DNA of 64,000 nucleotides from Candidatus Kerfeldbacteria bacterium CG15_BIG_FIL_POST_REV_8_21_14_020_45_12 (GTDB taxonomy: Bacteria; Patescibacteriota; Patescibacteriia; UBA9570; XYC2-FULL-38-9). How positions within the stretch are numbered: the first letter of the stretch is position 1; each line of letters starts with the position of its first letter. A program made the translations under genes and the position numbers. Shown piece after piece: positions 2,779 through 41,887 of this stretch. The stretch is from contig PFGC01000037.1 in NCBI GenBank assembly GCA_002781785.1, positions 13,589 to 77,588 of the forward strand. The letters are read 5' to 3'. The notes under the pieces are model-generated. The model saw nothing but the letters and a program-made list of their open reading frames with translations. It made no database searches and was not told the origin of the DNA.

Positions 2779-3174
2779 ATGACAGATCCAATTGCAGACA
2801 TGTTAACACGCATCAGAAACGCCCAGGCCGCGAAGAAGCCTGAGGTATTGATGCCTTACTCAAAACTAAAGCACACGTTGGCTGATATTTTAGCAACCGA
2901 AGGTTTTATTTCCTCGGTATCAGTGGACGACGGTGAAGGTAGTGTAAAGAAAATGCTTACACTAGGCCTAAAATATAGTGGAGGAAAGCCAGTTATTCGT
3001 CGAATCGATAGAATTTCGACTCCTGGACGTCGAGTTTATGTAGGCGTGAAGAAGCTGCCGTATGTTTTCGATAACTTGGGCATTGCTATCATTTCTACCT
3101 CAAAAGGTTTAATGAGCAATAAGCAAGCACGTAAAGAGCGCATGGGCGGTGAAGTAATTTGTGAAGTGTTCTAA
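2779..3174 (+). CDS. rpsH: 30S ribosomal protein S8
   Basis: 131 aa; MTDPIADMLTRIRNA. Confidence 0.95.
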   Translation: MTDPIADMLTRIRNAQAAKKPEVLMPYSKLKHTLADILATEGFISSVSVDDGEGSVKKMLTLGLKYSGGKPVIRRIDRISTPGRRVYVGVKKLPYVFDNLGIAIISTSKGLMSNKQARKERMGGEVICEVF

Positions 3175-3179
3175 TCTCT

Positions 3180-3725
3180 ATGTCACGTATTGGAAAACAA
3201 CCTATTGCTATCCCAGATAAAGTTACCGTTGAGGTAAAAGGTGGATTGATTGTAGTTAAAGGACCGAAGGGCGAACTATCTGAGTCGGTTCATTCATGCA
3301 CAACCGTAACGATTACTGAGGCTGGAGTTGAGGTCGCCATTGCTGATCTAAGCGAAAAGTCACAACGATCGATGTGGGGAACTATGGCTGCCTTAATTAG
3401 AAATATGATTATTGGTGTCACAGATGGTTTTACCCGTAAACTAGAGATTAATGGAGTTGGATATGGTTGGCAGGTATCAGGAAAGAAGCTGACGGTAAAG
3501 GCCGGCTATTCACACCCAATTGATGTTACATTGCCAGAGGGAATTGATGCTTCTGCAGAAGGAAACGTACTGACAATTTCTGGAATCAACAAGCAGTTAG
3601 TTGGTGAGGTAGCGGCAAATATTAGAAAAATTCGCACCCCAGAACCATATAAGGGTTCTGGAATTAAGTATGATGATGAACAGATCCGTCGCAAGGCTGG
3701 CAAGCAGGCTGGCGGTGACGCATAA
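3180..3725 (+). CDS. rplF: 50S ribosomal protein L6
   Basis: 181 aa; [14 protein letters not shown]. Confidence 0.95.
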
Positions 3726-3733
3726 GGAAGACT

Positions 3734-4081
3734 ATGAGTATTGCACAAAAAAAACGAATGTCTCGAGGTCGACGCGCTCATCGAACGCGATCGCGATTCC
3801 ATGGTACAGCAGAGCGACCTCGCCTGTCTGTATTCCGATCTAACTTGCATATTTCTGCACAAGTTATTGATGATGTGTCCGGTGTAACCGTGGCGCAAGC
3901 TGATGACCGTGATTTAACTGGAACCAAGCGAGAAATTGCTCTAGCTGTTGGAAAGAGAATAGCTGAGGTGGCTAAAGCCAAGGGGATTGAAAGCATCGTC
4001 TTTGATCGCGGTGGTTATTTATATCATGGACGAGTCAAGGCATTAGCCGATGGAGCTCGTGAAGGCGGTTTGAAATTTTAA
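3734..4081 (+). CDS. rplR: 50S ribosomal protein L18
   Basis: 115 aa; [16 protein letters not shown]...FDRGGY.YHGRV. Confidence 0.9.
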
Positions 4082-7238: not shown

Positions 7239-7988
7239 ATGAGCTTAATTAAGACACCTGATGAGATTTTGATCCTGGTTGAGAGTGGGCGAATTTTGGC
7301 TGAGTCGGTGACTAAGGTGTTAAGTGTAGTAGAGTCAGGAGTAACTACTTCTGATCTTGATGATTTTTTTGTAGAGACAATTAGAAAGCTTGGTGCAAAG
7401 CCAGCATTTCTAGGATATAAGGGATACACCAAAACAATTTGCACATCGGTTAATGACCAAGTTGTTCACGCTATTCCTGGTAAAGTTACTTTGGCAGATG
7501 GTGATATTATTGGTGTAGATTGCGGAGTTGTTTTCGAGGGCATGTACACTGACATGGCCCGCACGGTGGCGGTTGGTAGCATCACTGACGAAGCACGTCG
7601 TTTGATTGAGGTTACTAAAGAGGCTCTGCAAGCAGGTATTCAGCAAATGATTGTTGGCAACACCGTGGGAGATATTAGCGCTGCTGTTCAGGCGGTAGGG
7701 GATCGTGAGAAACTTGGAATTGTACGCGATCTTGTAGGACATGGTGTGGGTCACGCCGTGCATGAGGAGCCAGCGGTCCCAAACTATGGAAGAGCTGGAA
7801 CTGGCCTACGTTTAGAGGTTGGAATGGTTTTAGCAGTTGAGCCAATGTTTACATTAGGCGGTGACGATGTCATCTTTGAAAAAGACGGATGGACTGTGAC
7901 AACAGCCGATGGTACACTGTCCGCACATTTCGAGGACACCATAGTCGTAACTGAAGCAGGTCCTCACATTGTAACCAAAACAGCATAA
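7239..7988 (+). CDS. map: Methionine aminopeptidase type I
   Basis: Metal ligands in DIIGVDCG, HGVGH and EPM context. The start is taken at the internal ATG (MSLIKTP) to avoid a 34-nt overlap with adk. Confidence 0.9.
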   Translation: MSLIKTPDEILILVESGRILAESVTKVLSVVESGVTTSDLDDFFVETIRKLGAKPAFLGYKGYTKTICTSVNDQVVHAIPGKVTLADGDIIGVDCGVVFEGMYTDMARTVAVGSITDEARRLIEVTKEALQAGIQQMIVGNTVGDISAAVQAVGDREKLGIVRDLVGHGVGHAVHEEPAVPNYGRAGTGLRLEVGMVLAVEPMFTLGGDDVIFEKDGWTVTTADGTLSAHFEDTIVVTEAGPHIVTKTA

Positions 7989-8392
7989 TGAAATACCTAG
8001 GAATGGATTATGGAACTAAGCGCACTGGCCTGTCTATTTCAGACGTGTCTGGGCGCGTTGCTGTTCTCAAGGAAACTATCGAGGAAGATAGTCAGGACAA
8101 GGTGATTGAAAGAATAAAAGAGATAGTAATTGATGATGATGTTGAGGCCGTAGTCATAGGATTGCCGGTGAACATGAATGGAGAGTCAACTGCGATGACG
8201 GAACAAGTTGAGCGATTTATTGAAAAATTGCGAAATCATTTGACGGTTCCTGTGCAAACAGCTGATGAGAGATTGACGACAGAGATGGCAAAAAAATTAC
8301 TTAGAGGGGTTAAAAAAGAAGAAAGAGATCAGGTGGCAGCGCAAATTCTTTTGCAGAATTTTCTTGACGAACAGAACGCATTAACAGAGTAG
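7988..8392 (+). CDS. ruvX: Holliday-junction resolvase-like pre-16S rRNA nuclease YqgF/RuvX
   Basis: 134 aa; LGMDYGTKRTGLSISD is the RNase H-like YqgF motif. Confidence 0.85.
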   Translation: MKYLGMDYGTKRTGLSISDVSGRVAVLKETIEEDSQDKVIERIKEIVIDDDVEAVVIGLPVNMNGESTAMTEQVERFIEKLRNHLTVPVQTADERLTTEMAKKLLRGVKKEERDQVAAQILLQNFLDEQNALTE

Positions 8393-8395
8393 ACC

Positions 8396-9478
8396 ATGCA
8401 GCAATTGCCGACCATGTTGGTGGTGAGTGGGTTGACGCTGCTGACGTCAATTGTCGCGACAATATTTGTTAGAGCAATGGCGAAGCGTTTTGATATTTTG
8501 GATAAGCCAGAGGAGGATCGAAAAAAACACCAATATCCAACGCCGCTATTAGGTGGTGTCGCGGTTATTTTTGCAGTAGCAGTAGGTCTAGTTTTCGCCT
8601 GGAGTTCTTTGATTGGAGGTTATCTATTGCCAAAGCATCTGGTAGGGTTTTTGGCGGCGGCTATGGTTTTGCTGGTTGGAGGCGTGCTAGATGATAGGTT
8701 AAATTTATCGCCGAAGAGACAAATTATTTTTCCAGTTTGTGCAGCGCTGATTGTTATGGCGTCAGGAATTGGCATCGATTACATATCAAATCCACTGGGT
8801 GGAGTATTTCGTTTTGATAGTTGGCAGCTGGAGATATTCCGATTTAATGGATTGCCTTATTTCATTACTGTTTGGGCAGATTTATTCACCTTTTTTTGGT
8901 TGTTAGGGATGATCTATACAACTAAGTTTTTGGATGGTTTGGATGGACTGACTTCCGGAGTTACTGTAATTGGCTCGCTTATTATAGCGGCCTTGTCTTT
9001 AACTGCGACGGTTTTTCAACCAGAAACCGCACTTTTGTCTTTAATTGTGGCAGCAGCGTTTTTAGGATTTTTAATATTTAATTGGAATCCTGCGTCAATT
9101 TTTTTGGGAGAGTCTGGTTCACTCTTTGCGGGCTTTTCGCTTGGCGTATTGGCAATTATTTCTGGAGGAAAAATTGCGACAGCATTACTGATTTTAGGAA
9201 TTCCAATTTTGGATGTAGCTTGGGTTATATTGCGTCGGTTGTTTTATCGTCGGTCACCGTTTTCTGCTGATCGAGGACACTTGCATTTGCGTTTGGTAGA
9301 CAGCGGCCTGTCAGTCAGGGTTGTGGTGATAGTACTATACGTTTTAACAATACTATTTGGCCTTAGTTCATTATTTTTGCAGTCACGGGCAAAAGTGTTA
9401 GCTTTGGTATTTTTGGGAGTTACGGTATTTTTTGTGGGCGGTGTCTTAATTCATTTTATAAGGAAGCGCGTTTCATGA
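8396..9478 (+). CDS. Glycosyltransferase family 4 polyprenyl-phosphate sugar-1-phosphate transferase (MraY/WecA family)
   Basis: 360 aa with 10+ TM segments; DDRLNLSP and NWNPASIFLGESGSLFAGF motifs. Confidence 0.75.
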   Translation: MQQLPTMLVVSGLTLLTSIVATIFVRAMAKRFDILDKPEEDRKKHQYPTPLLGGVAVIFAVAVGLVFAWSSLIGGYLLPKHLVGFLAAAMVLLVGGVLDDRLNLSPKRQIIFPVCAALIVMASGIGIDYISNPLGGVFRFDSWQLEIFRFNGLPYFITVWADLFTFFWLLGMIYTTKFLDGLDGLTSGVTVIGSLIIAALSLTATVFQPETALLSLIVAAAFLGFLIFNWNPASIFLGESGSLFAGFSLGVLAIISGGKIATALLILGIPILDVAWVILRRLFYRRSPFSADRGHLHLRLVDSGLSVRVVVIVLYVLTILFGLSSLFLQSRAKVLALVFLGVTVFFVGGVLIHFIRKRVS

Positions 9479-13437: not shown

Positions 13438-16134
13438 ATGAGTGATTCAATGAAAACTTTTTACGACTTATCAGCTGAAGAGGCCTTGAAGCTTTTTAAT
13501 TGCACTGAAGTTGGGCTAGATGAGGAGGTTATTGAGCAGCGTCTGATTAAGTACGGACGAAACGTGCTTCCAGAGCCAGCTAGCACTCCTTGGTTTGTGC
13601 TGCTCTTTAATCAAGTTAAGAGCTTTTTGATAATTTTATTAATTGTTGCGGCTATTGTCAGTTATATACTTGGAGACACAGCTGATGCCATGATTATTAT
13701 TGTCGCTGTAGTAATAAACATGGTGGTTGGTTTTATTCAGGAGTGGAAAGCTGAAAAGTCAGTGGAGGCTTTACGTCGAGTGATTGCTCAGCAAGCTAAG
13801 GTTAGGCGGGGAGGAAAAGAGGCTTTAATTCCAGTCGAGCAGTTGGTACCGGGAGATATATTATTGCTTGATGCTGGAGACAAGGTTCCGGCGGACGCTA
13901 GATTATTGAAGTTAAATGATTTCACGACGAATGAGGCTCCCTTAACTGGAGAATCTAATGAGGTAGTAAAGTCACTTGAAAAAATTGATGCTAGCGCGGT
14001 AATAGGGGATCGAGTGAATATGGTCTTTTTGGGGACGACTGTTTTACAAGGGTCCGCTGAAGCGGTGGTGACACACACAGGCGTCAATACTGAAATTGGT
14101 AAAATTGCTGCCTTGCTCGATAAAGCTGATTCAGGAGAAACTCCACTGCAAAAAAAATTAGATAGATTTGCTCGTGGAGTTGGTATCGCAGTTATTTTGA
14201 TTTGTGTTGCTCTGTTTATTGTAGGTGTGCTAGTTGGGATGGACCCCTTAGAAATATTTACTATATCAGTAGCGGTAGCTGTTTCAGCCATACCTGAAGG
14301 CTTGGTAGTGGCGGTTACGGTAATTTTGGCTCTTGGCATGCAGCGAATATTAAAGCGCAACGCCTTGGTTAGAAATTTACAAGCTGCTGAGACTTTGGGA
14401 TCAACGAGTGTTATTTGTACAGATAAGACCGGCACAATTACAGAAGGGAAGATGGAAGTTGTGTCAGTGGTTACGGCCAAGCAAGAATTTCAGGATCTTC
14501 ATCATGTGAGAAGAAATGATCCAACGGAGCTTAGTGAACTTATTTTTGCAGTGCAACTTGGCATGCTCTGTAATGATGCTCATGTTACTGAAAATGATTC
14601 TGGCTTGAAAGATTCAATTATAGTTGGAAATCTTACTGAGCAGGCTCTGCTTAGGGCCGGCATGGCCGTAGGCATTGATCATGTGATATTAAAAAGTGAG
14701 GAGCCTCGCATATCTACAATACCGTTCAATTCGAAAAATAAGTTTATGGCGACCCTCCATAAACACCCAGAGCTTGGAAAACGTATTTACATGAAGGGTG
14801 CGCCAGAAAAAATTGTGGCTATGTCAACGCAGGTCAGGTCCGGAGAGCAGGCGATTGCTTTTGATGACGAGATGAAGAGTAAATTTGAAAATGAGTTTGA
14901 GAAATGTTCTCGCAAGGGTTTAAGAATTTTGGGGTTAGCATATAAAAATGTTTTAGAATCAACTGAGGAGATAGCTGAGCAAGATTGCACTGATATGATT
15001 TTTGCTGGTTTTGTGGGGATTAAAGATCCACTTCGTCCTAATATAGCTGAAACTTTTGCTAAAACTAAAGCTGCTGGTATTCGTACAGTGATGATCACCG
15101 GTGATCACAAATTAACGGCTCAGGCTATCGCTGCTGAAGTAGGTTTATTGGTTGAGGATAAAAATATCCTAACGGGTGATGAGTTGCATGCCATGACACA
15201 GGAAGAGTTAAATAGTCGAGTAGAAGATATTACGGTTTATGCGCGTGTGTCTCCAGAAGACAAACTTAATATTATCAATGCTTGGAAATCACGCGGTAAA
15301 GTGGTAGCTATGACAGGTGATGGTGTGAATGATTCGCCGGCTCTCAAAACTGCCTCGATTGGAGTGGCGCTGGGGTCTGGTACTGACGTGGCTAAAGAGG
15401 CGGCTGACATTGTTTTATTGGATGATAGATTTGAAACCATTGTAGCGGCAGTAGAGGAGGGTAGGGGTATTTTTGATAATATCCGCAAAGTAGTTTTATT
15501 TTTGATGTCGGATTCCTTTTCTGAGGTTGTGGTTATTTCTTTTGCGATAATGTTGGGACTTCCAGTGCCGTTGACGGCTGCTCAAATTCTTTGGATAAAT
15601 TTAGTGAGTGATGGTTTTCCGAGTGTTGCATTAACAGTTGATCCCAAAGACGAGGGTATCATGGATGAGCCGCCGAGATCGTTGCGTGAGTCAGTTTTAA
15701 ATAATGAGATGAAGATATTGATTTTTATAATTAGTGTAGTGACAGGAATTTTAAACATATTGGTTTTTTGGTATTACTTGAAGACGACCAATAATCTTGA
15801 GTTATCTCGCTCTGTAGTATTTCTGAGCTTGTCTATAGACTCTTTGATTTATGTATTTTCGATTCGACAGTTACGCCGACCTTTGTTTAGCCGAGGCATT
15901 TTTAAAAACCGTTGGTTATTATTGGGCGTCGCAGCATCATTTTTTATTCAGTTATCAGCCTTCTATGTACCGCCGTTATCTCGATTGATGAAAACAGTAC
16001 CATTAGGTTTGCGTGACTGGGGTGTAGCTATAACTATAGCCACACTTGTAATTATGGTAACTGAGATAATAAAGTATATTTTCAATAGAAGACATCGTCG
16101 AACTAATTATAAAAATAGATCAGCACTGGCATGA
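13438..16134 (+). CDS. P-type cation-transporting ATPase (P2-type Ca2+/Mg2+-like)
   Basis: 898 aa; DKTGTIT phosphorylation site, TGDHKLTA, GDGVNDSPALK, and 10 TM segments. It has its own TTGATT-17-TATGAT promoter. Confidence 0.9.
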   Translation: MSDSMKTFYDLSAEEALKLFNCTEVGLDEEVIEQRLIKYGRNVLPEPASTPWFVLLFNQVKSFLIILLIVAAIVSYILGDTADAMIIIVAVVINMVVGFIQEWKAEKSVEALRRVIAQQAKVRRGGKEALIPVEQLVPGDILLLDAGDKVPADARLLKLNDFTTNEAPLTGESNEVVKSLEKIDASAVIGDRVNMVFLGTTVLQGSAEAVVTHTGVNTEIGKIAALLDKADSGETPLQKKLDRFARGVGIAVILICVALFIVGVLVGMDPLEIFTISVAVAVSAIPEGLVVAVTVILALGMQRILKRNALVRNLQAAETLGSTSVICTDKTGTITEGKMEVVSVVTAKQEFQDLHHVRRNDPTELSELIFAVQLGMLCNDAHVTENDSGLKDSIIVGNLTEQALLRAGMAVGIDHVILKSEEPRISTIPFNSKNKFMATLHKHPELGKRIYMKGAPEKIVAMSTQVRSGEQAIAFDDEMKSKFENEFEKCSRKGLRILGLAYKNVLESTEEIAEQDCTDMIFAGFVGIKDPLRPNIAETFAKTKAAGIRTVMITGDHKLTAQAIAAEVGLLVEDKNILTGDELHAMTQEELNSRVEDITVYARVSPEDKLNIINAWKSRGKVVAMTGDGVNDSPALKTASIGVALGSGTDVAKEAADIVLLDDRFETIVAAVEEGRGIFDNIRKVVLFLMSDSFSEVVVISFAIMLGLPVPLTAAQILWINLVSDGFPSVALTVDPKDEGIMDEPPRSLRESVLNNEMKILIFIISVVTGILNILVFWYYLKTTNNLELSRSVVFLSLSIDSLIYVFSIRQLRRPLFSRGIFKNRWLLLGVAASFFIQLSAFYVPPLSRLMKTVPLGLRDWGVAITIATLVIMVTEIIKYIFNRRHRRTNYKNRSALA

Positions 16135-16904
16135 GAGTTACTAAACAGGATATTTTCAACGTTAAAACTCAGTTGCAGCAGGAGATTCAGCAATATGAAA
16201 AGCAGTTGCAAGAGTTAATTGTTAAGCAGGGCATGATTACCAAGGTGGCTGAGTTAGCTCAATCAATTTTGGAATACAATGAACTAGAGCGAAATATTGG
16301 TGATCGAACCTATATTTTTGCATTACTGTCTTCCCCTCCAGAGTCGCTGAGGAACCCTTTGGTGAAGTCTAATTTATTTTCCTATATTGAGGCCGCTGAA
16401 ACGGTCAGTGTTGAGTTGGTTGATTTTTTGTTAAATGATTTTATTCAGCAGATCAAATTTGATATTCAAAATGGTGAAGATGATGACCCTGGCTTGGTTC
16501 AAGCTGAGTATAAAGAGTACATTATTCCAGGTAAAATAATCGCCGAGAGATTTGATGAAATCGAACCCTTACTCGAAGAGATGAACCGTTTCTGTAAAGT
16601 GCTTCAGCCTAACTATGATGCCAATGAGGCTCAAACGGTTTTAGAGTATGGAATTCGTAAGTCAATATCGGCAGACACTAGAATGGATCCAACACTTCAT
16701 TTATTAAAGGAGGTTAAGTTACAATATTTAACACCAGAAGCACGGGCAAGATTAGTGGATGAGGTTGAGGAGCATTTGGCCATAATTAGATTTGAGGTGG
16801 CGAAGGATCAGAATATTGCTATGGATAAGGCCATCACAATGCTGGAGGCAAGAGAGATGAATCATGGAATTCCTGATTCTGCACCAACTCCGCCGCAAAG
16901 TTAA
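16131..16904 (+). CDS. Hypothetical protein (helical, acidic)
   Basis: 257-aa intact ORF with native-like composition; no family recognised. Confidence 0.4.
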   Translation: MRVTKQDIFNVKTQLQQEIQQYEKQLQELIVKQGMITKVAELAQSILEYNELERNIGDRTYIFALLSSPPESLRNPLVKSNLFSYIEAAETVSVELVDFLLNDFIQQIKFDIQNGEDDDPGLVQAEYKEYIIPGKIIAERFDEIEPLLEEMNRFCKVLQPNYDANEAQTVLEYGIRKSISADTRMDPTLHLLKEVKLQYLTPEARARLVDEVEEHLAIIRFEVAKDQNIAMDKAITMLEAREMNHGIPDSAPTPPQS

Positions 16905-16914
16905 CAAAATATAT

Positions 16915-17340
16915 ATGGGCGATAAAGTTGTTCGATTCGACTTTGTGAAAAAACGTCGCTTAGAGCCAGGTGAGCCTGATGTTGAAGAATTTGCTAAACC
17001 GGAGCCAGTGTTGGATACGGAGCCACACCCTCAATCGAGTCCTGATGCCAGCATTAAAAGAGAGCGCTCAGGGGTGGTGCCGCCTGAAGATAGATTTGAT
17101 TTTGAAAGGCTGATTGCTACCTTAAACGGTTTAGCGGCTTTGCGTGAGGCCAGTGGCATTGCTCGTCGGCCAGACAGAGTGATGACCAGGCACGCTGCCG
17201 CTCAAATGGATGGATGGACAGTAGGGGAATTATGGCGTGCCATCAATCAGGGAAATGAACGAGATTGGGCTAAGCAGCCATCATATTACGATGCTGTGAT
17301 TGAAGAGCTGACACGACGAGGTTTATTGCCTACGCGTTAG
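16915..17340 (+). CDS. Hypothetical protein
   Basis: 141 aa from the internal ATG; no family recognised. Confidence 0.35.
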   Translation: MGDKVVRFDFVKKRRLEPGEPDVEEFAKPEPVLDTEPHPQSSPDASIKRERSGVVPPEDRFDFERLIATLNGLAALREASGIARRPDRVMTRHAAAQMDGWTVGELWRAINQGNERDWAKQPSYYDAVIEELTRRGLLPTR

Positions 17341-25277: not shown

Positions 25278-26300
25278 ATGGCAAAAACACGCATTGCAAT
25301 CAACGGATTCGGTCGAATTGGAAAAATGGCTTTCAAAATAGCGCTTGAAGAGCATGGAGATAATGTCGAGATTGTTGGAATTAATGACCTTGGTCCGGCT
25401 GAGCAGGCCGTCCAAGGCTTGAAGTACGATTCGGTTTACCCTTCATTTGATCATGATATTGACTTTGGAGATGACTTTATCAGTGTGGATGGAGTTAAGG
25501 TGCCAAAGTATGCTGAAATGGAGCCAGAGAAGTTACCTTGGAAGGATTTAAAGGTTGATGTTGTCCTTGAGTGCACTGGTGTCTTTACAAGTAAAGAAGG
25601 AGCTAGCAAGCATCTGACTGCTGGAGCTAAGACAGTAATTATTTCTGCTCCTGCTAAGGGTGATGATCCCGTGGGAACTTTTGTGATGGGTGTTAATCAT
25701 GATGAGCATGACGCCGCTAAGGATCCGGTATTGTCTAATGCTTCTTGCACTACAAATTGTATTGCGCCTGTGATGCAGGTATTGCACGATGAGTTTGGTG
25801 TTGAGAAGGCGATGATGTCAACCATTCATGGTTATACGGCTGATCAGCGATTAGTGGATGGTGTTCATAAAGATCCTCGTAGAGCTCGGGCCGCTGCGAT
25901 AAATACAATTCCTACTTCAACTGGTGCGGCTGTGGCTACTGCAGAAACCATTCCAGAACTAGTTGGTATTTTTGATGGCATGGCCTTTCGTGTGCCGGTG
26001 CCAGTTGGTTCGGTTAGCGATATTACTGCAGTTTTAAAAAAGGATGTGACGGTGGAGGAGGTTAACGCTGCTTTATCTAAGGCGGCAGATTCTGAGAGAT
26101 ACGCTGGAGTGCTTGGGGTAACGACTGATCCAATTGTATCTTCTGACATTATTGGAAATAAATTATCTTCCTTGGTTGATTTGCCACTGACGATGGTAGT
26201 GGGCGGCAATATGGTAAAAGTAGTGGCTTGGTATGACAATGAATATGGATATTCAAATAGACTTGTTGAACAAGCCGTTGAGGTTGGTAAAGATCTTTAA
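25278..26300 (+). CDS. gap: Glyceraldehyde-3-phosphate dehydrogenase
   Basis: NGFGRIGK Rossmann fold, catalytic SNASCTTNC. The start is taken at the internal ATG (MAKTRIA). A terminator follows at 26319-26347. Confidence 0.95.
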   Translation: MAKTRIAINGFGRIGKMAFKIALEEHGDNVEIVGINDLGPAEQAVQGLKYDSVYPSFDHDIDFGDDFISVDGVKVPKYAEMEPEKLPWKDLKVDVVLECTGVFTSKEGASKHLTAGAKTVIISAPAKGDDPVGTFVMGVNHDEHDAAKDPVLSNASCTTNCIAPVMQVLHDEFGVEKAMMSTIHGYTADQRLVDGVHKDPRRARAAAINTIPTSTGAAVATAETIPELVGIFDGMAFRVPVPVGSVSDITAVLKKDVTVEEVNAALSKAADSERYAGVLGVTTDPIVSSDIIGNKLSSLVDLPLTMVVGGNMVKVVAWYDNEYGYSNRLVEQAVEVGKDL

Positions 26301-26562
26301 GATAGTTTGTTGATTTTTAAAAAGGTCCCCGGCGAGGGGCCTTTTTGGTAAAAAATTGGAGCCGGTTGAGAAGCTCCTGTGCTAGTAGACGAACACACCG
26401 GTAAAGGTGAGCTGGCCTCCCATGCTGGCGCTGAGGCCCCATCAGGACAAGTCGCTTTGGGAAGTCTTATATCGTGCAAGTGCCCCCTTAAAGGCTGGGC
26501 CAGTGAATCTGTTTTGATTATCAATGCCAAGATTAAAATTGATATAGAAATACCATATTCTT

Positions 26563-26591
26563 GACATATTACACTGTCAGGCTAGAATAGA
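26563..26591 (+). promoter_or_regulatory. Sigma70-like promoter TTGACA-16-TAGAAT for tRNA-Glu
   Basis: Consensus -35 box ~40 nt upstream of the tRNA 5' end. Confidence 0.55.
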
Positions 26592-26605
26592 TTGCACGAA
26601 AATTT

Positions 26606-26680
26606 GCCCGCATCGTCTAACGGCTAGGACGCCAGGTTCTCATCCTGGTAATCGGAGTTCGATTCTCCGTGCGGGTACCA
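26606..26680 (+). tRNA. tRNA-Glu (anticodon CTC), CCA encoded
   Basis: GCCCGCA acceptor, ATCGTCTAACGGCTAGGAC D-arm typical of tRNA-Glu, anticodon loop TTCTCAT, T-loop TTCGATT, then ACCA. Confidence 0.9.
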
Positions 26681-26685
26681 GAGCA

Positions 26686-26717
26686 GCATCACACTAGGTA
26701 AGTGTGATGTTTTTGTT
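26686..26717 (+). terminator. Rho-independent terminator after tRNA-Glu
   Basis: CATCACACT-aggtaa-GTGTGATG then TTTTTGTTT. Confidence 0.8.
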
Positions 26718-26800
26718 TAAAGATTGCTGTTTTTGTGGATTATTTGATCTTTTTTTTAGGTTTATTTATACTTCGGCCACCTCACTCTGTTTGTGGGGTA

Positions 26801-27490
26801 ATGCCGTTGAGGTGTTGTGTGACCTTACTTGATCTTATTCAAAAGTCGTACCCTGGCCTCTCGTTCGAAGATGCTCAGCTTCTGACGATCAGTGATCGAT
26901 GTGAAGCGGTGGCGAGGGGGCGCCGTGTTCCGGTGGTGGCCGATCACCTGGCCTACGTTCGCTCTGGCTTCGTCATGGAGTGCTACGGCGAACCCTGCGG
27001 ATCTGGTCAGTGGTCTCTCTTCCTGGGCACTCAGCTGTTCATGAATCCTGGGGCCTACTTCGGAACGTCTGATCCTGACATCGAGGCGTTGACCAGGACC
27101 AGGGTGCAGTACATCCCGCTCGAGGCGGTGAGGGCTGTGTGTCGACGGTCATCGTACCTGACCACGGTTTTGCAGGGCGGGATCATCGCTCAACGAGACC
27201 GTTTGGCCAGCTCGCTGGCCATGACCGGTCAGTCTGTGGAGGCACGCTTCACTCAGGTTCTGGCTGAAATGGTGATGACGATTGGACTGAGAGATGAGGA
27301 TGGAGTCTTCGTTCCCATCAAGATCAATCGGACTCAGCTGGCTCAGATGGTGGGCTGTAGAACAGAGACGGCCATCAGGGCTTGGAGGAGCTGCGCTGAT
27401 GGTGGTCAAATCATCGAGCGTCTGGAGGGATTCGTGATTCCTCATGACTCTTGCTTCATGGACCTGCTTGAGAAGAGAAGCGTCGCATAG
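26801..27490 (+). CDS. Crp/Fnr-family transcriptional regulator, encoded in a GC-rich island
   Basis: 229 aa; C-terminal helix-turn-helix INRTQLAQMVGCRTETAIRAWRSCADGGQI matches the HTH_Crp pattern, preceded by a cNMP-like beta-roll region. Codon usage is GC3-rich, unlike its neighbours. Confidence 0.65.
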   Translation: MPLRCCVTLLDLIQKSYPGLSFEDAQLLTISDRCEAVARGRRVPVVADHLAYVRSGFVMECYGEPCGSGQWSLFLGTQLFMNPGAYFGTSDPDIEALTRTRVQYIPLEAVRAVCRRSSYLTTVLQGGIIAQRDRLASSLAMTGQSVEARFTQVLAEMVMTIGLRDEDGVFVPIKINRTQLAQMVGCRTETAIRAWRSCADGGQIIERLEGFVIPHDSCFMDLLEKRSVA

Positions 27491-27636
27491 CTCACAGAAC
27501 CCATTCTCTGAAGACACGGTCTCGTGTTGTGTTTTCAGAAAATTGATTCGGTGGGAAATACGTTGCCGTGCTCTGTAAGAGGGGTGCGGCTCTTTTTTTA
27601 GGTACGTACTGAGCTCTTCTGCTATAATGATATTCT

Positions 27637-29139
27637 ATGGTCAGTAAAAGAGCTCACACAAATTATCTACCAACCGTTTTTACTATATTTGGTATTACTG
27701 GTGACCTAGCTAAACGTAAGCTGATTCCAGCTATTTATCACTTGTATTGTCATGGCTTGTTGCCAGAGGAAATTCATTTTGTAGGAGTAGGGCGACGGGA
27801 TTTATCGCTAGGTGATTACGGAGAAATGATTAAGCAAAGCGTAACTTATGCTGAAGGCAAGGTAGACGCAGACAAGCTGGCAAGTTTTGCGGCTCTATTT
27901 TCATATGTTGAAGGTGATATTAAGAGCCCAAAGGCATACGCTGATATTGGACAGGAGATTGCCAAGAGAGATAAAGATTGTGGCCATGGCCATCAGACGG
28001 TATTTTATTTGGCAGTGGCTCCGCAGATGTTTATCAGGATTATTGAGCACTTGAAGGAAGCTAGCTTAACGGGACCTTGTTATGAGCTAGGCATTAAGGG
28101 AAAGATAGTAATTGAAAAACCGTTTGGTCACAGTGTTGAGTCGGCCCGTCAGTTAAGTGAAGCTGTCATGACTTATGCTGACGAAGAGCAGATTTATCGA
28201 ATGGATCATTACCTAGGCAAGGAGACAGTTCAAAATATATTATTGTTTCGATTTACCAATCCAGTTATTAATGATTCTTGGAATCCTGAGGCGATAGATC
28301 ATATTCAAATCACCGCCTCTGAGGATATAGGAGTAGAGGATCGAGCTGGTTATTATGATAGCTCTGGAGCGCTTCGTGACATGATTCAGAGTCATTGTTT
28401 AGCGCTAGCCACTTTAGTGATGATGGATGAGCCAATGAGTTTGAATTCGGCTGATATCCATCGGCGTAAGGTTGAAATGTTGCAAACTTTTTCATTAGAT
28501 TCTAATCCAGCTGAGTCAGCGGTGCGAGCTCAGTACGATGGTTATAGAGCTATAGAAACTGTGGCTGAGCATTCTGTAACGGAAACTTTTGCCGCCATGC
28601 AATTAAAATCTTCTCATCCACGGTGGAAGGATGTACCTATTTTTATTAGGACTGGTAAGCGGATGGCTCAAAAGGAAACCAATATTGCTATTCATTTTGC
28701 ACCATGTAAATCTGATATCTGTAAGGCTGTCGGCATTAGAACAGAACCAAATGTCTTAAATATTCGAGTACAGCCTATGGAAGGAATAGGTTTATTATTG
28801 TATGCTAAGAAACCAGGTTTTTCTATTGAGACTGAGCAGGTCTATATGAATTTTACCTATCAGACTGAATTTACTGATGAACAGCCCTCGCCGTATGAGC
28901 GCTTGATCCATGATGTAATTATTGGTGACCAGTCACTCTTTCCAACCACTGAGGAAGTCATGGAACAATGGCGGATTGTTCAGCCAGTGCTTGACGCATG
29001 GAGTGATCAAGCTTTACCGATGCATAGTTACGCTCCGGGTGAGGATGGTCCGCAAGCAGCTCATGATTTGATAGGTCAGTGGCACGATTCAACTTGGACA
29101 GCAGGTGTGGGAAAACAAATGAATAGTGATGCTCAATGA
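27637..29139 (+). CDS. zwf: Glucose-6-phosphate 1-dehydrogenase
   Basis: GITGDLAKRK NADP site and the MDHYLGKE signature. Confidence 0.9.
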   Translation: MVSKRAHTNYLPTVFTIFGITGDLAKRKLIPAIYHLYCHGLLPEEIHFVGVGRRDLSLGDYGEMIKQSVTYAEGKVDADKLASFAALFSYVEGDIKSPKAYADIGQEIAKRDKDCGHGHQTVFYLAVAPQMFIRIIEHLKEASLTGPCYELGIKGKIVIEKPFGHSVESARQLSEAVMTYADEEQIYRMDHYLGKETVQNILLFRFTNPVINDSWNPEAIDHIQITASEDIGVEDRAGYYDSSGALRDMIQSHCLALATLVMMDEPMSLNSADIHRRKVEMLQTFSLDSNPAESAVRAQYDGYRAIETVAEHSVTETFAAMQLKSSHPRWKDVPIFIRTGKRMAQKETNIAIHFAPCKSDICKAVGIRTEPNVLNIRVQPMEGIGLLLYAKKPGFSIETEQVYMNFTYQTEFTDEQPSPYERLIHDVIIGDQSLFPTTEEVMEQWRIVQPVLDAWSDQALPMHSYAPGEDGPQAAHDLIGQWHDSTWTAGVGKQMNSDAQ

Positions 29140-32769: not shown

Positions 32770-32880
32770 ATGCAGATCGATCATAGGACCGAGCGCTTGA
32801 TGTTTCGCATCTCTGTGCTCTTTGTCGGGGTGTCTAGCTTGCTAACACTGGCTATGATATCGCCGATGGTAATAGGGTAA
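32770..32880 (+). CDS. Orphan small hydrophobic peptide (36 aa; internal ATG gives 26 aa), possibly a type I toxin-like peptide or sRNA
   Basis: MQIDHRTERLMFRISVLFVGVSSLLTLAMISPMVIG lies between a consensus promoter and a terminator. It was not in the supplied ORF track because it is under 60 aa. Confidence 0.25.
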   Translation: MQIDHRTERLMFRISVLFVGVSSLLTLAMISPMVIG

Positions 32881-32925: not shown

Positions 32926-32968
32926 AGTAAAAAAAAGAAGCCCGGTCGATCGCAGGTGATCGAACGGA

Positions 32969-33499
32969 CTAGTGGCTCGCGAAGCTCAGGCTGGGGCGAG
33001 TAGCGCCGCCAAAGTGCTCGGCGAGCCACGAGCGCATCTTGTCGGTCGGGAAGGGGGCGATGTTGCCAGTTCCCGGATCGCGGACGAGCTGCAGCCAGCC
33101 TTCGGTGTAGGCCCAGTCCCCGGGGAGGACGGGGAAGCTGGCGCGGAAGCGGTGTCCGACAGGGTCGGGAAGCCCGAAGCGAGCGTCTCCGAGGTCGTTC
33201 TGGATGACGGCCATTGCGGAGGTGTTGTCGCCGTACTGGCGCAGGACGGCCACGCAGAGCAGGCAGTCCCAGCAGCGGCCGGGGCCAAGCAGGTCGGGCA
33301 GTCGCCGCCATTCCAGCCGATCGGTGCTCAGGGGTACCGCTGTGTTGGGATGCTCCCATCGGACGATGCCCTGGTGGATGGCGACTGTAATCGGCCACAG
33401 GGTGCCGATGATCGAGTGCGCCCTGAGATCGCGGAGGGCATGGGGTGAGGAGGGGGGCCCTTCGGCGGTGGGCACCCAGGTTGCAGGACGATGCTTCAT
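32969..33499 (-). CDS. Hypothetical protein (177 aa) in a GC-rich island, with a CxxCxxC motif
   Basis: ATG at 33499 with a GGAG ribosome-binding site. The amino-acid composition is balanced (MKHRPATWVP...GRCWDCLLC...WLAEHFGG), whereas overlapping frames are Arg/Pro/Ala low-complexity. GC3-rich codons. Confidence 0.45.
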   Translation of the reverse strand: MKHRPATWVPTAEGPPSSPHALRDLRAHSIIGTLWPITVAIHQGIVRWEHPNTAVPLSTDRLEWRRLPDLLGPGRCWDCLLCVAVLRQYGDNTSAMAVIQNDLGDARFGLPDPVGHRFRASFPVLPGDWAYTEGWLQLVRDPGTGNIAPFPTDKMRSWLAEHFGGATRPSLSFASH

Positions 33500-33614
33500 C
33501 GAGACTCCACGGGTTTGTCGGCTTACTGTCTGCCGAGCTGAGGAAACGAACACCTCAATGGGTGTTGCCTGTATGTATCAAGAATACCCTGGCTCGTCAA
33601 TGATTCGGCCCCTC

Positions 33615-33642
33615 TTGACACTGCAAAATAGGTGAGTATACT
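33615..33642 (+). promoter_or_regulatory. hrcA promoter TTGACA-16-TATACT
   Basis: Consensus -35 box immediately upstream of the CIRCE element. Confidence 0.6.
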
Positions 33643-33646
33643 GCTA

Positions 33647-33673
33647 TTAGCACTCAGCCAATGAGAGTGCTAA
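33647..33673 (+). promoter_or_regulatory. CIRCE operator (HrcA binding site) TTAGCACTC-N9-GAGTGCTAA
   Basis: Perfect match to the canonical CIRCE inverted repeat, 25 nt upstream of hrcA. Confidence 0.9.
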
Positions 33674-38842: not shown

Positions 38843-38889
38843 ACAAACAAAAAATCCCCTCATGGGATCAATTTTTTTATAGAAAAGAG

Positions 38890-39172
38890 AGGTGGAGCTG
38901 GGTGGGAGGTCGGCCGAAGCTTACCCCCACCCAGCTAGCACTGTTGGTATGATCACTGTGGACTCCCCAGTCCAACGCAGGGCTTCCGAGGCCCTACTCG
39001 CCGGTCCCGCAGGCGTTATCGTTCCTTGCGTGGGGTCTCCAGTCCCACCGATAAAGCCAAGCCAGCTCAGTAATCACGGCTCTGGCCGATGCCCATGCGG
39101 CTCATCGACCAAAGGTCCCTCGTCAACGAGTGACAGCCCTCCAGCTGGTTCGTTAACGTCACCTCTAGCGCC
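38890..39172 (-). ncRNA. Candidate novel structured RNA (~280 nt, GC-rich) with its own promoter; family unassigned
   Basis: On the minus strand, a TTGACT-17-TAGAGT promoter sits at 39179-39207 on plus-strand coordinates. Downstream is a GC-rich region packed with hairpins, ending in a perfect 11-bp stem (AGCTGGGTGGG...CCCACCCAGCT) followed by CAGCTCCACC and a U-rich tract. Every frame gives low-complexity Pro/Ser/Gly or Arg translation. Confidence 0.3.
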
Positions 39173-39213
39173 GTCGGCACTCTATCTGAAGGGCCTTATT
39201 TAGTCAAATATAA

Positions 39214-39270
39214 AAAAAGAGGCGGGTCGATCAGCAGCTCTCCGAAATATTCCAGAGACCGATCGATCCG
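39214..39270 (-). terminator. Terminator hairpin for paralog A (minus strand)
   Basis: Long imperfect hairpin CGGATCGATC...GATCGACCCG followed on the minus strand by CCTCTTTTTTT; it overlaps the stop codon. Confidence 0.5.
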
Positions 39271-40068
39271 CTATTTGTTGCCAGGCGCGGCTGGGCTAGT
39301 GACCAGCACCAGTAGGCCATCACGGTTGGCGCGACAGCCGCCACTGGCCATTGCCTCCCTGACGATGGCTTCCAGCTGATCCGCCACTTGAGGTGATGGA
39401 TCCTCATCCTCATCGTTGATGAAGTAGATTCCACAGATGTAGCTCTCCTGGTCGCCATCATCGACCCCGAGCATGACCCGAGTGCCGATGGGCAGATCCT
39501 CGATGCTGCTCAGACGATCCTGGATGGTTTCGAGCAGTTCAGCCACGGCAATGCCTAGCTCGGCGGTTTCGAGCAGGGGCATGTCCACCTTGCTGTCACC
39601 GGAGAGTTGGATCTTCATGCGGGAGCGTTCAGACCAGTCCTTGATCTGGGCATCGCAGACGATGGTTGCTGCGATCAGGTCGCTCAGGCTTGCGTTGCCG
39701 ATCGGTACAGTCCTAGCGAACGGAAGATCGAGGTACACGTGGAAGCTGTGCTGTCGCCGGTGCTTGAGCCCCAGGGCCTCTACCATCTCGGCGAGATTGA
39801 AGAGCATTTCGACGGCTCGGGGCAGGCAGGCAGGTCCCAGTTCGCCGACCGGCAGCAGGATCAGCATGGTGTCTTCACCATCGAGCGCCACCGGGTTGTT
39901 CGAGTCCATCAGGTCGATGCCTTCCTCGATGAGATCGGCACAGACCTCTTCCAGGGTGTTGGGGAAGGGTTGACCCAGAAGTGAGGTCAGGTGACCTGCC
40001 GAGTCAGTAGCTGTGAACAGGATCGTCACCGATCCGCTTGCTCCAGTGAAGATGTCAGTCGGTGTCAT
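39271..40068 (-). CDS. Unknown-function protein, paralog A of a tandem triad (GC-rich island)
   Basis: 265 aa from the ATG at 40068, which has a ctGGAGGacagATG ribosome-binding site. It shares blocks with B and C (VTILFTATDS.. / ..MLILLPVGELGPA). GC3-rich codons; promoter TTGACT-17-TAAGGT at 40105-40133 on the minus strand. Confidence 0.5.
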   Translation of the reverse strand: MTPTDIFTGASGSVTILFTATDSAGHLTSLLGQPFPNTLEEVCADLIEEGIDLMDSNNPVALDGEDTMLILLPVGELGPACLPRAVEMLFNLAEMVEALGLKHRRQHSFHVYLDLPFARTVPIGNASLSDLIAATIVCDAQIKDWSERSRMKIQLSGDSKVDMPLLETAELGIAVAELLETIQDRLSSIEDLPIGTRVMLGVDDGDQESYICGIYFINDEDEDPSPQVADQLEAIVREAMASGGCRANRDGLLVLVTSPAAPGNK

Positions 40069-40201
40069 CTGTCCTCCAGTAGCACTCACCTTGAGCGCGA
40101 TCTTACCTTAATAGCAAGGGTCGATCTAGTCAATAAAAAAAGAGACCCTACACGCACCTGGAGAGGTGGGTAGGGGTGAGAGAGACTTGCTGCGCCTCTG
40201 C

Positions 40202-40918
40202 TCAGGAGCTGGGGTTGTCCGTGCGGCGCCGGGAACCTCCCGCGCCGAAGCGGCGGAGGAGCTCCAGCAGCGACTCGCTGCCGTCGGTCTGGTCGCGGAA
40301 GATGTCTTCGACGTCGAAGCCGGGGCTGAAGCCGACGAACCGCACTCGGACCAGCGTCGGACCACGCGAGGTGGGATGGCCGCTGTTGAAGACGCCGTCG
40401 ATGGCATCTTTGGCTGCGGCGAGCTCCTTGAGCTCACGGCAGACCCAGGTGGGGTCCGTGAACACCCCGACGCTCGAGGAGACGCGACCGGTGGTGAGCA
40501 GATTGGTGATCCGTCCGAAGCTCAGCCCTCCGAGCAGGGCGAGGGCCCAGCTGACCTCGTCGTTGGAGACCTGCCAGAGATCGGACGGATCGATGGCGAT
40601 GGCCACGTCGGCGAGGTTCTGGTTGGTGACGTTGGCGACGATCTGTCGTCCCGCCATCGTCAGGCGGTTTGCCAGGCCTTCGTCGATCGCCCCCACCGGT
40701 ACGAACATGACCTTGCGGCCAGTCTGGGTGGTGTAGATCGTCGAGGCGGCCAGAGCATCACCGCGGATGCGGCGATGATCGGCGTTGAAGATGGCTTCAG
40801 CCTCGACGTCCTGGTGGAAGCCGAAGAGGGGGACGCGACCGAGGCCGCAGTAGCAGGTGCTGACCAGGATGACGGTCACGGCGGGGAGCTTTCCAGAGAA
40901 CAGGGGACGGGGCTGCAT
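40202..40918 (-). CDS. Unknown-function protein, paralog B of the tandem triad
   Basis: 238 aa; ATG with a GGAGG ribosome-binding site. Blocks AVTVILVSTCY and KVMFVPVGAIDEGLA align with A. Own promoter TTGACA-18-TATTGT (40999-41028, minus strand) and a downstream hairpin plus T-run. Confidence 0.5.
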   Translation of the reverse strand: MQPRPLFSGKLPAVTVILVSTCYCGLGRVPLFGFHQDVEAEAIFNADHRRIRGDALAASTIYTTQTGRKVMFVPVGAIDEGLANRLTMAGRQIVANVTNQNLADVAIAIDPSDLWQVSNDEVSWALALLGGLSFGRITNLLTTGRVSSSVGVFTDPTWVCRELKELAAAKDAIDGVFNSGHPTSRGPTLVRVRFVGFSPGFDVEDIFRDQTDGSESLLELLRRFGAGGSRRRTDNPSS

Positions 40919-41105
40919 GTTGCCTCCAGGCTACAGCTGTGATGTTTGCTCGAAACCGAAACTTTTGAATTTGGGGATTTTACCCCTCGAGCCGCCTGAC
41001 AATACCGGATTAATTTGGTCTTTGTCAAGGGTTTTTAAAAAAAGATCGCGCGGCAGACTCGGAGTCTAGCGCACGCGAAGGTGGCGGGTGTGACCTGATC
41101 CTTCT

Positions 41106-41789
41106 CTAATCGCGGTAGAAGGGGGCCACGTCGATGGCCCAGCCACTGTTCCGCTCGATGGCGGCAAGCAGACGGTCGCCGAGGCGGCCGGCAGCCTTGC
41201 GTGGGTGTCGGATCGTCTGGCTGGTCTTGCGCCAGGTCTCCGCCAGTCGCTCTGACCGCTGCGCCCATGTCAGCCAGCTGCTGTGGATCCAGGCCATATC
41301 CCTGGCCGTCTGGTCGTCCACGACCTCCGGGCAGGTCACGAGCACCTGCGGGGCGAAGGGGGTGTTGCGCCAGCGAGCCATGGTAGCGACGGTCTCCATG
41401 CAGCCCATGATCAGCTGCATCAGGCAGGTGCCTCGCAGCTGGCCGGGGTCGAGTACCAGGCAGGTATGCGTGACCGAGAGGTGCTTCTGAATCAGCAGAG
41501 CTCCCAGGTACTGGCCGATGTGGCGGTAGTACAGGCTGCTCAGGTCACGCCAGTCCTGTCCGAGCCCGACCATGATCAGGGTGGCCGTACCCGAGACGGT
41601 GATCAGGGACATCACGTTGAGCTGGCCGGTGATGTCTGGGAAGCGGACGGCCGCGTCCATGATCGAGTTGAAGTAGCCTTCCGGCAGCTTGTCCGGGCTC
41701 GAGATGAGCACGGGCTGGTTGTTGTCATCGCGGCCCGTGAAGACGACGACGAAGCGGGTTGGTGCCAGGGTGAAAGGAACGGGGAGCAT
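41106..41789 (-). CDS. Unknown-function protein, paralog C of the tandem triad
   Basis: 228 aa from the ATG at 41789 (GGAGGcagtacATG). Blocks TRFVVVFTGRDD and VMSLITVSGTA resemble A and B. Own promoter TTGACC-17-TACACT (41843-41871, minus strand), divergent from the 41939 gene. Confidence 0.5.
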   Translation of the reverse strand: MLPVPFTLAPTRFVVVFTGRDDNNQPVLISSPDKLPEGYFNSIMDAAVRFPDITGQLNVMSLITVSGTATLIMVGLGQDWRDLSSLYYRHIGQYLGALLIQKHLSVTHTCLVLDPGQLRGTCLMQLIMGCMETVATMARWRNTPFAPQVLVTCPEVVDDQTARDMAWIHSSWLTWAQRSERLAETWRKTSQTIRHPRKAAGRLGDRLLAAIERNSGWAIDVAPFYRD

Positions 41790-41887
41790 GTACTGCCTCC
41801 AGTACGTCAGGGTGGTGCCGGCAGAAACTACCAAGCCGCCGCAGTGTATCCAAATATTTATTATAGGTCAACGCTTATTGTTAAATA

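Follow-up and report, generated by a model that had tools for sequence, protein, structure and literature searches.

A highly divergent Crp/Fnr-fold gene, probably acquired horizontally, in a re-used intergenic slot of a Kerfeldbacteria-like genome

How did a GC-rich regulator gene come to lie between tRNA-Glu(CTC) and zwf in the genome of Candidatus Kerfeldbacteria bacterium CG15_BIG_FIL_POST_REV_8_21_14_020_45_12, and what kind of protein does it encode? The gene lies in a stretch of 64,000 nucleotides (GenBank assembly GCA_002781785.1, contig PFGC01000037.1, positions 13,589 to 77,588 of the forward strand), hereafter the window, in whose coordinates positions are given unless a locus of a relative is named. 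An initial annotation, made from the letters of the window alone, had proposed that a foreign global regulator of the Crp/Fnr family was inserted directly 3' of tRNA-Glu, tRNA 3' ends being classic integration sites. We give horizontal acquisition of this gene (hereafter the regulator gene) a probability of roughly 0.7, because its composition is atypical, it is absent from the loci of relatives in which the flanks are conserved, and its nearest homologues lie outside the host clade. The locus is laid out as follows.

25278–26300, plus strand: gap (GAPDH), left anchor of the variable slot; Gp_dh_N and Gp_dh_C Pfam matches on the identical gene in loci L002–L008
26561–26588, plus strand: promoter-like site for tRNA-Glu, TTGACA-16-TAGAAT, with 11 of 12 consensus matches
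26606–26680, plus strand: tRNA-Glu(CTC) with encoded CCA (ARAGORN; Rfam tRNA, 58.2 bits)
26685–26720, plus strand: intrinsic-terminator-like hairpin (11 pairs) and T-run directly 3' of tRNA-Glu
26744–26772, plus strand: promoter-like site TTGATC-17-TATACT (consensus match only) within the AT-rich leader, 5' of the regulator gene
26801–27490, plus strand: regulator coding sequence (CDS), ATG at 26801 to the stop ending at 27490, 229 aa, divergent Crp/Fnr-fold protein
27565–27599, plus strand: terminator-like hairpin (10 pairs, 6 of them GC) and T7, 3' of the regulator gene
27624–29139, plus strand: zwf, right anchor of the slot, with the -10 box TATAAT at 27624–27629 and the ATG at 27637; G6PD_N and G6PD_C Pfam matches

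The initial annotation had the coordinates and the order of these elements right, from tRNA-Glu(CTC) with its terminator, through the 229-aa open reading frame (ORF) with its own terminator, to the low-GC zwf. It placed the patch within about 50 nt of the tRNA; the shift in composition starts near 26776, about 95 nt away, and it is the longest, GTG-started ORF that begins within about 55 nt. Note that gene callers in other assemblies picked alternative starts, GTG at 26735 (251 aa) and GTG at 26819 (223 aa).

The regulator ORF has a GC content of 0.567, with 0.578, 0.465 and 0.657 at the first, second and third codon positions (GC1, GC2 and GC3), compared with 0.438 ± 0.025 for GC and 0.384 ± 0.040 for GC3 in 48 further ORFs of 150 aa or more that lie outside the GC-rich patches, a set that does not include hrcA (GC3 0.54). 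It thus lies above this background by roughly 5 standard deviations for GC and 7 for GC3. The order GC3 > GC1 > GC2 is the one that genuine genes show in GC-rich backgrounds. Further, genes only tens of bases from the patch were compositionally unaffected. Of the two anchors, gap has a GC content of 0.44 and a GC3 of 0.34, and the zwf CDS (27637–29139) has 0.42 and 0.34, in a host of 44.7% GC. The bias extends to the protein, in which the GARP and FYMINK fractions are 0.293 and 0.179, compared with 0.22–0.26 and 0.24–0.28 in host proteins. The GC anomaly that had been described is therefore real; the figure of about 62% attached to it is too high, since the ORF reaches 56.7% and the interval 26700–27600 reaches 52.7%, and no 400-nt window exceeds 58%.

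HrcA homologues placed the lineage among Kerfeldbacteria-like Patescibacteria and were used to fetch syntenic loci from seven relatives, which are designated below by locus numbers. Gap followed by tRNA-Glu(CTC) was found in four of the seven (L012, L013, L052 and L054), and the state of the slot 3' of the tRNA in these four was as follows.

L012 (GCA_054014515.1, closest relative; HrcA 76% identical): zwf follows the tRNA-Glu terminator at 82 nt; 3' slot empty; a 515-aa orphan precedes the tRNA
L054 (GCA_042568075.1; HrcA 55%): following gene 14 nt past tRNA-Glu; slot empty
L013 (HrcA 66%): 132-aa orphan in the slot, 49% GC compared with 38% for the locus
L052 (HrcA 51%): 140-aa orphan in the slot on the other strand, 60% GC compared with 46% for the locus

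The comparison with related genomes that had been suggested with the initial annotation thus came out in favor of an insertion: the regulator had no tblastn match in any of the seven related loci, and the slot is empty in two of them. The orphans of these loci resemble neither the regulator nor each other. Further, none of the genes within ±10 kb of the regulator belonged to an integrase or transposase family in Pfam, and the regulator is the only ORF in its patch. Seeded and Smith-Waterman searches for a repeat of the tRNA 3' end returned only chance-level matches (an 11-mer, or imperfect matches of 14–15 nt) in the window, L013 and L052. The absence of an integrase, of a tRNA 3'-end repeat and of other cargo, as reported in the initial annotation, agrees with both searches. 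We concluded that the slot between the tRNA-Glu terminator and the zwf promoter is a lineage-specific hot spot and not a classical integrase/att (attachment site) tRNA island.

The homologues of the regulator point away from the host clade. A word-indexed search of 5.8 billion protein clusters returned only the regulator itself. An exhaustive phmmer search over 1.84 billion representatives returned 94 matches, nearly all 200–260 aa long, of which the best non-self match had E = 2.7e-9 at 32% identity and came from a contig of 74% GC. No Patescibacteria-type homologue was among the 94, and the 93 non-self matches had a median GARP of 0.358 and a median FYMINK of 0.12, relative to which the regulator is intermediate. 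The initial annotation had associated homologues from the Candidate Phyla Radiation, and orthologues without GC3 enrichment, with local compositional drift; no close homologue of this type and no orthologue at all was found in the 5.8 billion clusters or the 1.84 billion representatives. Neither 72,556 plasmids nor 50,697 phages gave a tblastn match for the regulator, and no PHROG or PADLOC family matched the regulator or any ORF of the GC-rich islands described below.

The top matches share the block G-L-x-D-x-x-G-V-F-V-P-x-x-L-x-R-x-Q-L-A-x-M-V-G-C-R-x-E-T-x-I-R ... E-G-F-V. This block was rendered as a hand-made degenerate DNA pattern with which one genome per GTDB species was scanned. The scan identified 34 loci, mostly in metagenome-assembled genomes (MAGs) labelled Myxococcota, Deltaproteobacteria or Polyangiaceae. 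Of these, 32 were confirmed by tblastn (31–45% identity, 50–63 bits, mostly over the C-terminal half), 30 of them on DNA of 63–74% GC. The median GC3 of the homologous gene segments is 0.92, so that the GC3 of the regulator (0.66) stands about halfway between the donor-like value and that of the host (0.38). These values agree with a transfer long ago, the donor being either high-GC and Myxococcota-like or an unsampled relative. We name a Myxococcota-like donor only tentatively, at somewhat less than even odds.

The initial annotation had asked whether the nearest neighbor was actinobacterial. It is not: the nearest relatives lie on contigs of about 70% GC, mostly labelled Myxococcota or Deltaproteobacteria, and score 50–63 bits, compared with 11–19 bits for solved actinobacterial CRPs. 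Scores to this high-GC Crp/Fnr subfamily (for example P0002–P0004 and P0008; loci L015–L049), with which the regulator has the motif block in common, were the highest obtained anywhere (45–53 bits by phmmer and 50–63 bits by tblastn). The regulator nevertheless differs from it in several respects. Its GC3 is 0.66 and not about 0.92, and identity is 31–45%; many members carry an N-terminal C-x-C...C, of which the regulator keeps just a CC pair; and most members keep the Arg of the phosphate cassette, which the regulator does not have. The regulator also marks an uncharacterised Crp/Fnr subfamily on high-GC contigs, mostly with Myxococcota or Deltaproteobacteria labels. As a side observation, the signature pattern matches the gene in the window, yet the genome of the window is not among the 34 GTDB-representative loci; its representative is either absent or masked there, or does not carry the gene.

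Direct comparison of the regulator with family models gave scores below threshold. HTH_Crp_2 of Pfam scored 23.7 bits against a cut-off of 27 (E = 4.6e-5), cNMP_binding scored 13.6 bits against 27.5 (E = 0.066), and the NCBIfam CRP equivalog scored 15.6 bits against 266. In contrast to these direct matches, HTH_Crp_2 was found in all 50 aligned matches and cNMP_binding in 46 of the 51 aligned sequences. A profile built from the 50 homologues without the query matched residues 22–216 of the regulator, of which 22–117 form the N-terminal part, with 134.7 bits. The AlphaFold2 (AF2) model made with the homologue alignment had a pLDDT of 79.7 and a pTM of 0.75, compared with a pLDDT of 35 for the single-sequence model. 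In the former, a beta-roll is predicted at about residues 35–106, a dimerisation helix at 118–143 and a winged helix-turn-helix (HTH) at 146–214. The pLDDT was 91–96 over residues 141–220, and block means were about 85–91 in the helix; the confidence of the N-terminal domain ranged from 46 to 86, and the model relies on an alignment of Crp proteins. Thus a winged HTH of the Crp type is present according to the Pfam matches of the homologues, the query-free profile and the model confidence, and a C-helix between the two domains (118–143) is predicted by the model.

Foldseek returned full-length matches to GlxR, Mycobacterium tuberculosis CRP, NtcA and Escherichia coli CRP (TM 0.7–0.78). Compared with these solved factors (Corynebacterium GlxR 4byy/3r6s, M. 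tuberculosis CRP 3i54/3mzh/4a2u, Synechococcus NtcA 2xgx and E. coli CRP 1i5z), the regulator is alike in length and in the predicted architecture of beta-roll, long C-helix and winged HTH, over about 200–230 aligned columns, and retains both Glu and Arg in its recognition helix (E-T-x-x-R). In contrast, sequence similarity is marginal (11–19 bits for solved actinobacterial and enterobacterial CRPs against the single sequence, best E = 0.0065), both Pfam domains are below the gathering score, neither the Glu/Arg pair of the cAMP phosphate-binding cassette nor an FNR-type Cys pattern can be made out, and the Arg equivalent to R180 of E. coli CRP is Thr. GlxR and M. tuberculosis CRP head the profile and Foldseek matches because they were crystallised, and not through kinship. 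We concluded that the regulator is a genuine but extremely divergent protein of the Crp/Fnr fold and the sole known representative of its own branch. The assignment to the Crp/Fnr family, as made in the initial annotation, holds only at the level of remote homology; neither of the two direct Pfam matches reaches its threshold.

In alignments, the recognition-helix residues E189 and R193 are kept in the block MVGCRTETAIR, and R149 and T190 are also conserved. Because this Glu and Arg are kept, we infer that the regulator acts as a homodimer and binds DNA at a palindromic site like those of CRP and FNR. The cAMP phosphate-binding cassette (Gly-Glu...Arg-Ser/Thr) does not appear in the regulator, which reads ...GAYFGT-SDPDIEAL... 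at this place by alignment only; its effector is probably not cAMP, since the Glu and Arg of the cassette are replaced. The nine Cys residues, including C5, C6 and C115 just before the C-helix, do not have FNR spacing and are not conserved in the subfamily alignment. The frame of the regulator is intact and of a length typical of the family, with a promoter-like leader and its own terminator.

A search for operator sites had also been suggested. CRP boxes (TGTGA-N6-TCACA, up to two mismatches) were found 23 times in the window compared with 30.3 expected, a count to be read with the regulator's own true site possibly differing from this box. FNR boxes (TTGAT-N4-ATCAA, up to one mismatch) were mildly enriched, with 10 found compared with 4.2 expected, a number reached in 1 of 100 shuffles; most of these are intragenic. 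One such site lies within the regulator gene.

26829–26842, no strand assigned: FNR-box-like palindrome TTGATCTTATTCAA within the 5'-terminal part of the regulator CDS

As judged from its sequence and position, TTGATCTTATTCAA might speculatively serve as an autoregulatory site. Nothing beyond adjacency was found to couple the regulator to zwf or gap, and zwf has no such neighbor in the relatives L012 and L013. The adjacency to these two genes is accounted for by the slot being a hot spot. The designation as a global regulator is thus unsupported, given that CRP boxes are not enriched, the cAMP-contact positions are not conserved and no link to zwf or gap extends beyond adjacency.

The insert is not confined to one assembly. 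An identical zwf protein was found on 17 contigs (JGI, ENA, NCBI GCA_002790455.1 and Logan assemblies), and all 11 same-species loci that were fetched were 100% identical to positions 26501–27700 wherever they overlapped. Both junctions of the patch were spanned in 6 of the 11, which cover all 1200 bases on contigs of 7.9–74 kb. The regulator insert is thus fixed in every sampled population of the species.

The regulator patch is also not the only one of its kind in the window. The initial annotation had overlooked two further GC-rich islands, as follows.

32926–33614: island 2, 65–69% GC, between the terminator of a conserved 36–39-aa ORF and the hrcA promoter/CIRCE
32969–33499, minus strand: likeliest gene of island 2, 176 aa, GC3 0.83, no family match
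38880–41860: island 3, 57–69% GC, flanked by dnaJ and a conserved membrane protein
39271–40089, 40202–40918 and 41106–41834, minus strand: orphans of 272, 238 and 242 aa in island 3, GC3 0.70–0.87

Island 3 is built of three modules, about 900 nt long, in which a minus-strand orphan ORF is combined with an AT-rich spacer; two of the spacers contain ATAAAAAAAGAG (39210 and 40133) and the third contains the variant TTAAAAAAAGAT (41035). The ORFs of islands 2 and 3 had no Pfam, PHROG or PADLOC match, and no two of the window's five GC-rich ORFs were paralogous as far as BLASTP could detect; of the five, the regulator alone belongs to a cassette with a recognisable fold. The flanks of both islands are kept in relatives and their content varies.

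hrcA slot: 530-aa ORF in L012; 132-aa ORF in L051; empty in L013
dnaJ slot: two orphans of 67–71% GC in L012; empty in L050 and L051
dnaJ slot of L054 (GCA_042568075.1), 7358–8572: GC-rich gene of the Metalloenzyme family, GC3 0.80 compared with a locus GC of 0.50

The dnaJ slot carries further information. In L012, its first cassette, which holds a single gene at 67% GC, lies between two copies of the 47-nt 3' end of dnaJ (15102–15148 and 15984–16030; 42 of 47 identical). This is a real att-like integration footprint, in a relative and not in the window; no integrase was visible within that locus. Further, ORF 41106–41834 had no homologue among 5.8e9 proteins, and only direct comparison related it to the L012 ORF at 16219–17022, in the same slot downstream of dnaJ (30% identity, E = 3e-25). 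Both ORFs have a GC3 of about 0.87, in hosts of 45% and 52% GC whose flanking orthologues are 66–76% identical. This sharing is hard to explain either by vertical descent without amelioration or by repeated targeted capture. Taken together, it looks as if this lineage characteristically carries short GC-rich cassettes, each of a single gene, in intergenic slots that are used repeatedly.

How, then, could the regulator gene have entered its slot? A short direct repeat was found at the two edges of the patch.

26751–26761, no strand assigned: 11-nt direct repeat TTTTTTTAGGT, copy 1, left edge
27593–27603, no strand assigned: 11-nt direct repeat TTTTTTTAGGT, copy 2, right edge

At the density of 11-mer pairs in the window itself, an exact pair is expected 0.007 times per box of 120 × 120 nt. 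The repeat may represent a target duplication or microhomology used in illegitimate recombination, and as an edge signature of the patch it is suggestive only. In the mechanism that we propose, a single-gene cassette of about 26.78–27.59 kb, with its own promoter-like leader and terminator, would have been taken up from a GC-rich donor. It would have come to lie in the intergenic slot bounded by the tRNA-Glu(CTC) terminator and the zwf promoter, where foreign or orphan genes would repeatedly have settled in the Kerfeldbacteria-like lineage, and integration would have occurred without a tRNA-targeting integrase. Since this old acquisition, the cassette would have been partly ameliorated towards the 44.7% GC of the host.

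The alternative that survives best is that the patch is the remnant of an integrase-mediated tRNA-Glu island, from which the integrase, the distal att repeat and other cargo were later deleted. The position directly 3' of a tRNA, the foreign composition and the filling of the slot by different genes in L013 and L052 are what such a remnant would show, and the 47-nt dnaJ repeat around a GC-rich cassette in L012 indicates that site-specific integration occurs in the lineage. We consider it unlikely nonetheless, with the tRNA-derived matches in the window, L013 and L052 reaching only an 11-mer or 14–15 imperfect nucleotides, and with no integrase or transposase family within ±10 kb. Further, the tRNA gene itself is not the crossover site, because the tRNA terminator separates it from the insert. 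The regulator patch resembles tRNA-associated islands in its location 3' of a tRNA, its foreign composition and its variable presence among relatives; unlike those islands, it has neither an integrase nor an att repeat, carries a single-gene cargo of about 0.8 kb and lies beyond the tRNA terminator. Of the original proposal of a foreign gene inserted 3' of a tRNA, the tRNA-adjacent hot spot and the foreign composition thus stand, and the classical integrase island does not, the orphans of the relatives being likewise without tRNA repeats.

It is distinctly unlikely that the acquired gene is now decaying and is either a relic or a DNA-binding protein without a sensor function. Decay would account for the extreme divergence from every relative, the sub-threshold Pfam scores of both domains, the lack of conservation of the phosphate-cassette Glu and Arg in the profile alignment, the low confidence of the beta-roll in the model and the lack of CRP-box enrichment in the window. 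Against it, the 229-aa frame is intact at the usual length of the family with a coding-like GC1/GC2/GC3 pattern, R149, E189, T190 and R193 are conserved in the helix and the HTH, and the gene is fixed and identical in every sampled population.

We regard as very unlikely that the regulator is native, vertically inherited and fast-evolving, and became GC-rich by local drift, biased gene conversion or selection without any transfer. Such an origin would agree with the donor being one that cannot be named, with the host-style signals of an AT-rich promoter-like leader and an intrinsic terminator, and with the pair 41106–41834 and L012 16219–17022, which indicates that GC-rich genes persist in the lineage. 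In contrast, the gene is missing from the syntenic locus of all relatives examined, with two empty sites, and none of its 94 matches is of Patescibacteria type, the matches being overwhelmingly high-GC in amino-acid type (median GARP 0.358). Further, the amino-acid composition of the regulator is shifted as well, beyond what short-term local mutational bias would produce, and neighbors tens of bases away are unaffected. Finally, an assembly or binning chimera, in which a GC-rich fragment of another organism was joined into a Patescibacteria contig, has practically no chance of being correct: the GC change is abrupt, a short contig (L001, 1770 nt) stops 5 nt into zwf and three Logan contigs begin inside the tRNA, but six independent assemblies cross both junctions at 100% identity and the flanks are syntenic with relatives, which effectively rules it out.

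Several points weigh against acquisition as we have described it. No donor is closer than about 35–45% identity, over partial length only, and the donor clade is deduced from composition and at the level of the subfamily, with MAG labels being unreliable. The patch has no mobility gene and no tRNA-derived att repeat; TTTTTTTAGGT is mostly a T-run, as would be found after any terminator; and the intergenic DNA of the relatives has diverged too far for an alignment to fix the boundaries of the patch. Regarding the protein, the beta-roll is of low confidence (pLDDT 46–63 for residues 60–90), and both the AF2 model and the profile score rest on an alignment whose members were chosen for resembling the query. 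Because the gene does not differ between the population copies, dN/dS is not computable. Further, the GC-rich genes of island 3 that are shared at one slot without amelioration do not fit a simple clock of acquisition followed by amelioration.

With horizontal acquisition as the preferred reading, the regulator is an orphan Crp/Fnr branch gained by a Kerfeldbacteria-like genome. Patescibacteria have very few regulators and tiny genomes, and an acquired transcription factor that has become fixed is therefore a candidate adaptation. It possibly hints at the organisms with which the uncultured host lives. The transfer itself is ordinary in kind, and its pattern is unusually clean. Horizontal gain of regulators and genomic islands by groundwater Patescibacteria has been documented, one example being lysR from Omnitrophota (PMC12455944). 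The present case resembles those in that a streamlined Patescibacteria genome gained a transcription-factor gene from outside the phylum, but a high-GC donor of the Myxococcota-like type is not among the donor phyla listed there; here, moreover, there is no donor within about 35% divergence, and the same slots are re-used across species.

That GC-rich orphans recur in the same slots from one species to the next is less ordinary, and it is more intriguing than the gene itself. The three slots hold different GC-enriched orphans in relatives whose own GC content is 38–52%. A broader reading, which we consider doubtful, is that fixed intergenic landing pads (3' of tRNA-Glu(CTC), upstream of the hrcA CIRCE/promoter and 3' of dnaJ) repeatedly capture single GC-rich genes from high-GC neighbors or hosts, Myxococcota-like in the case of the regulator. 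Each gene would end up with its own promoter-like leader and terminator without an integrase in cis, and the 47-nt dnaJ repeat of L012 and the 11-nt repeat of the regulator would be footprints of the process. If this were true, the Crp-like protein would be a sensor derived from a host or neighbor and co-opted by the symbiont. If the slot pattern were genome-wide, it would provide a tractable system for the uptake, the domestication and the sources of foreign DNA in streamlined symbionts.

Some minor features of the islands were also observed. Public gene calls for island 2 give a 158-aa plus-strand ORF instead of the minus-strand gene listed above. To the left of this island, downstream of a ferredoxin-like gene, the small hydrophobic ORF of about 36–39 aa (32770–32880) is called in L012, L013 and L051, with 69–75% conservation of the DNA. 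On its other side, the stretch 33615–33673 contains the hrcA promoter TTGACA-16-TATACT and a perfect CIRCE, TTAGCACTC-N9-GAGTGCTAA (33647–33673), and is conserved at the DNA level in L012, L051 and L013. The left edge of island 3 (38892–39203) is 60% GC without a coding signature, GC3 being lowest of the three positions, and contains a perfect 11-bp hairpin (38896–38906 and 38926–38936). This stretch had no Rfam match and could be a decayed gene or an RNA; likewise, Rfam revealed no hidden RNA genes in the regulator leader or in the spacer between gap and tRNA-Glu. In a further relative, L053 (GCA_964344485.1), a patch of about 0.8 kb and 68% GC follows an ABC transporter (3001–3800). The public gene call there is apparently in the wrong frame, another frame of the same strand having a GC3 of 0.93.

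The surroundings of the regulator slot showed two further features. The spacer between gap and tRNA-Glu (26360–26520) is 54% GC; public assemblies call a 61-aa ORF in it, and it resembles nothing in relatives. Its counterpart in L012 holds the 515-aa orphan and about 700 nt, so that the region 5' of the tRNA varies as well. On the right, zwf is apparently leaderless: a TATAAT or TATACT box lies 6–7 nt 5' of the ATG in all three genomes with zwf (27624–27639 in the window, about 4805–4820 in L012 and about 5966–5982 in L013). In the window, a perfect 9-nt inverted repeat, TGAGCTCTT (27610–27618) and AAGAGCTCA (27648–27656), flanks the -10 box and the start codon of zwf.

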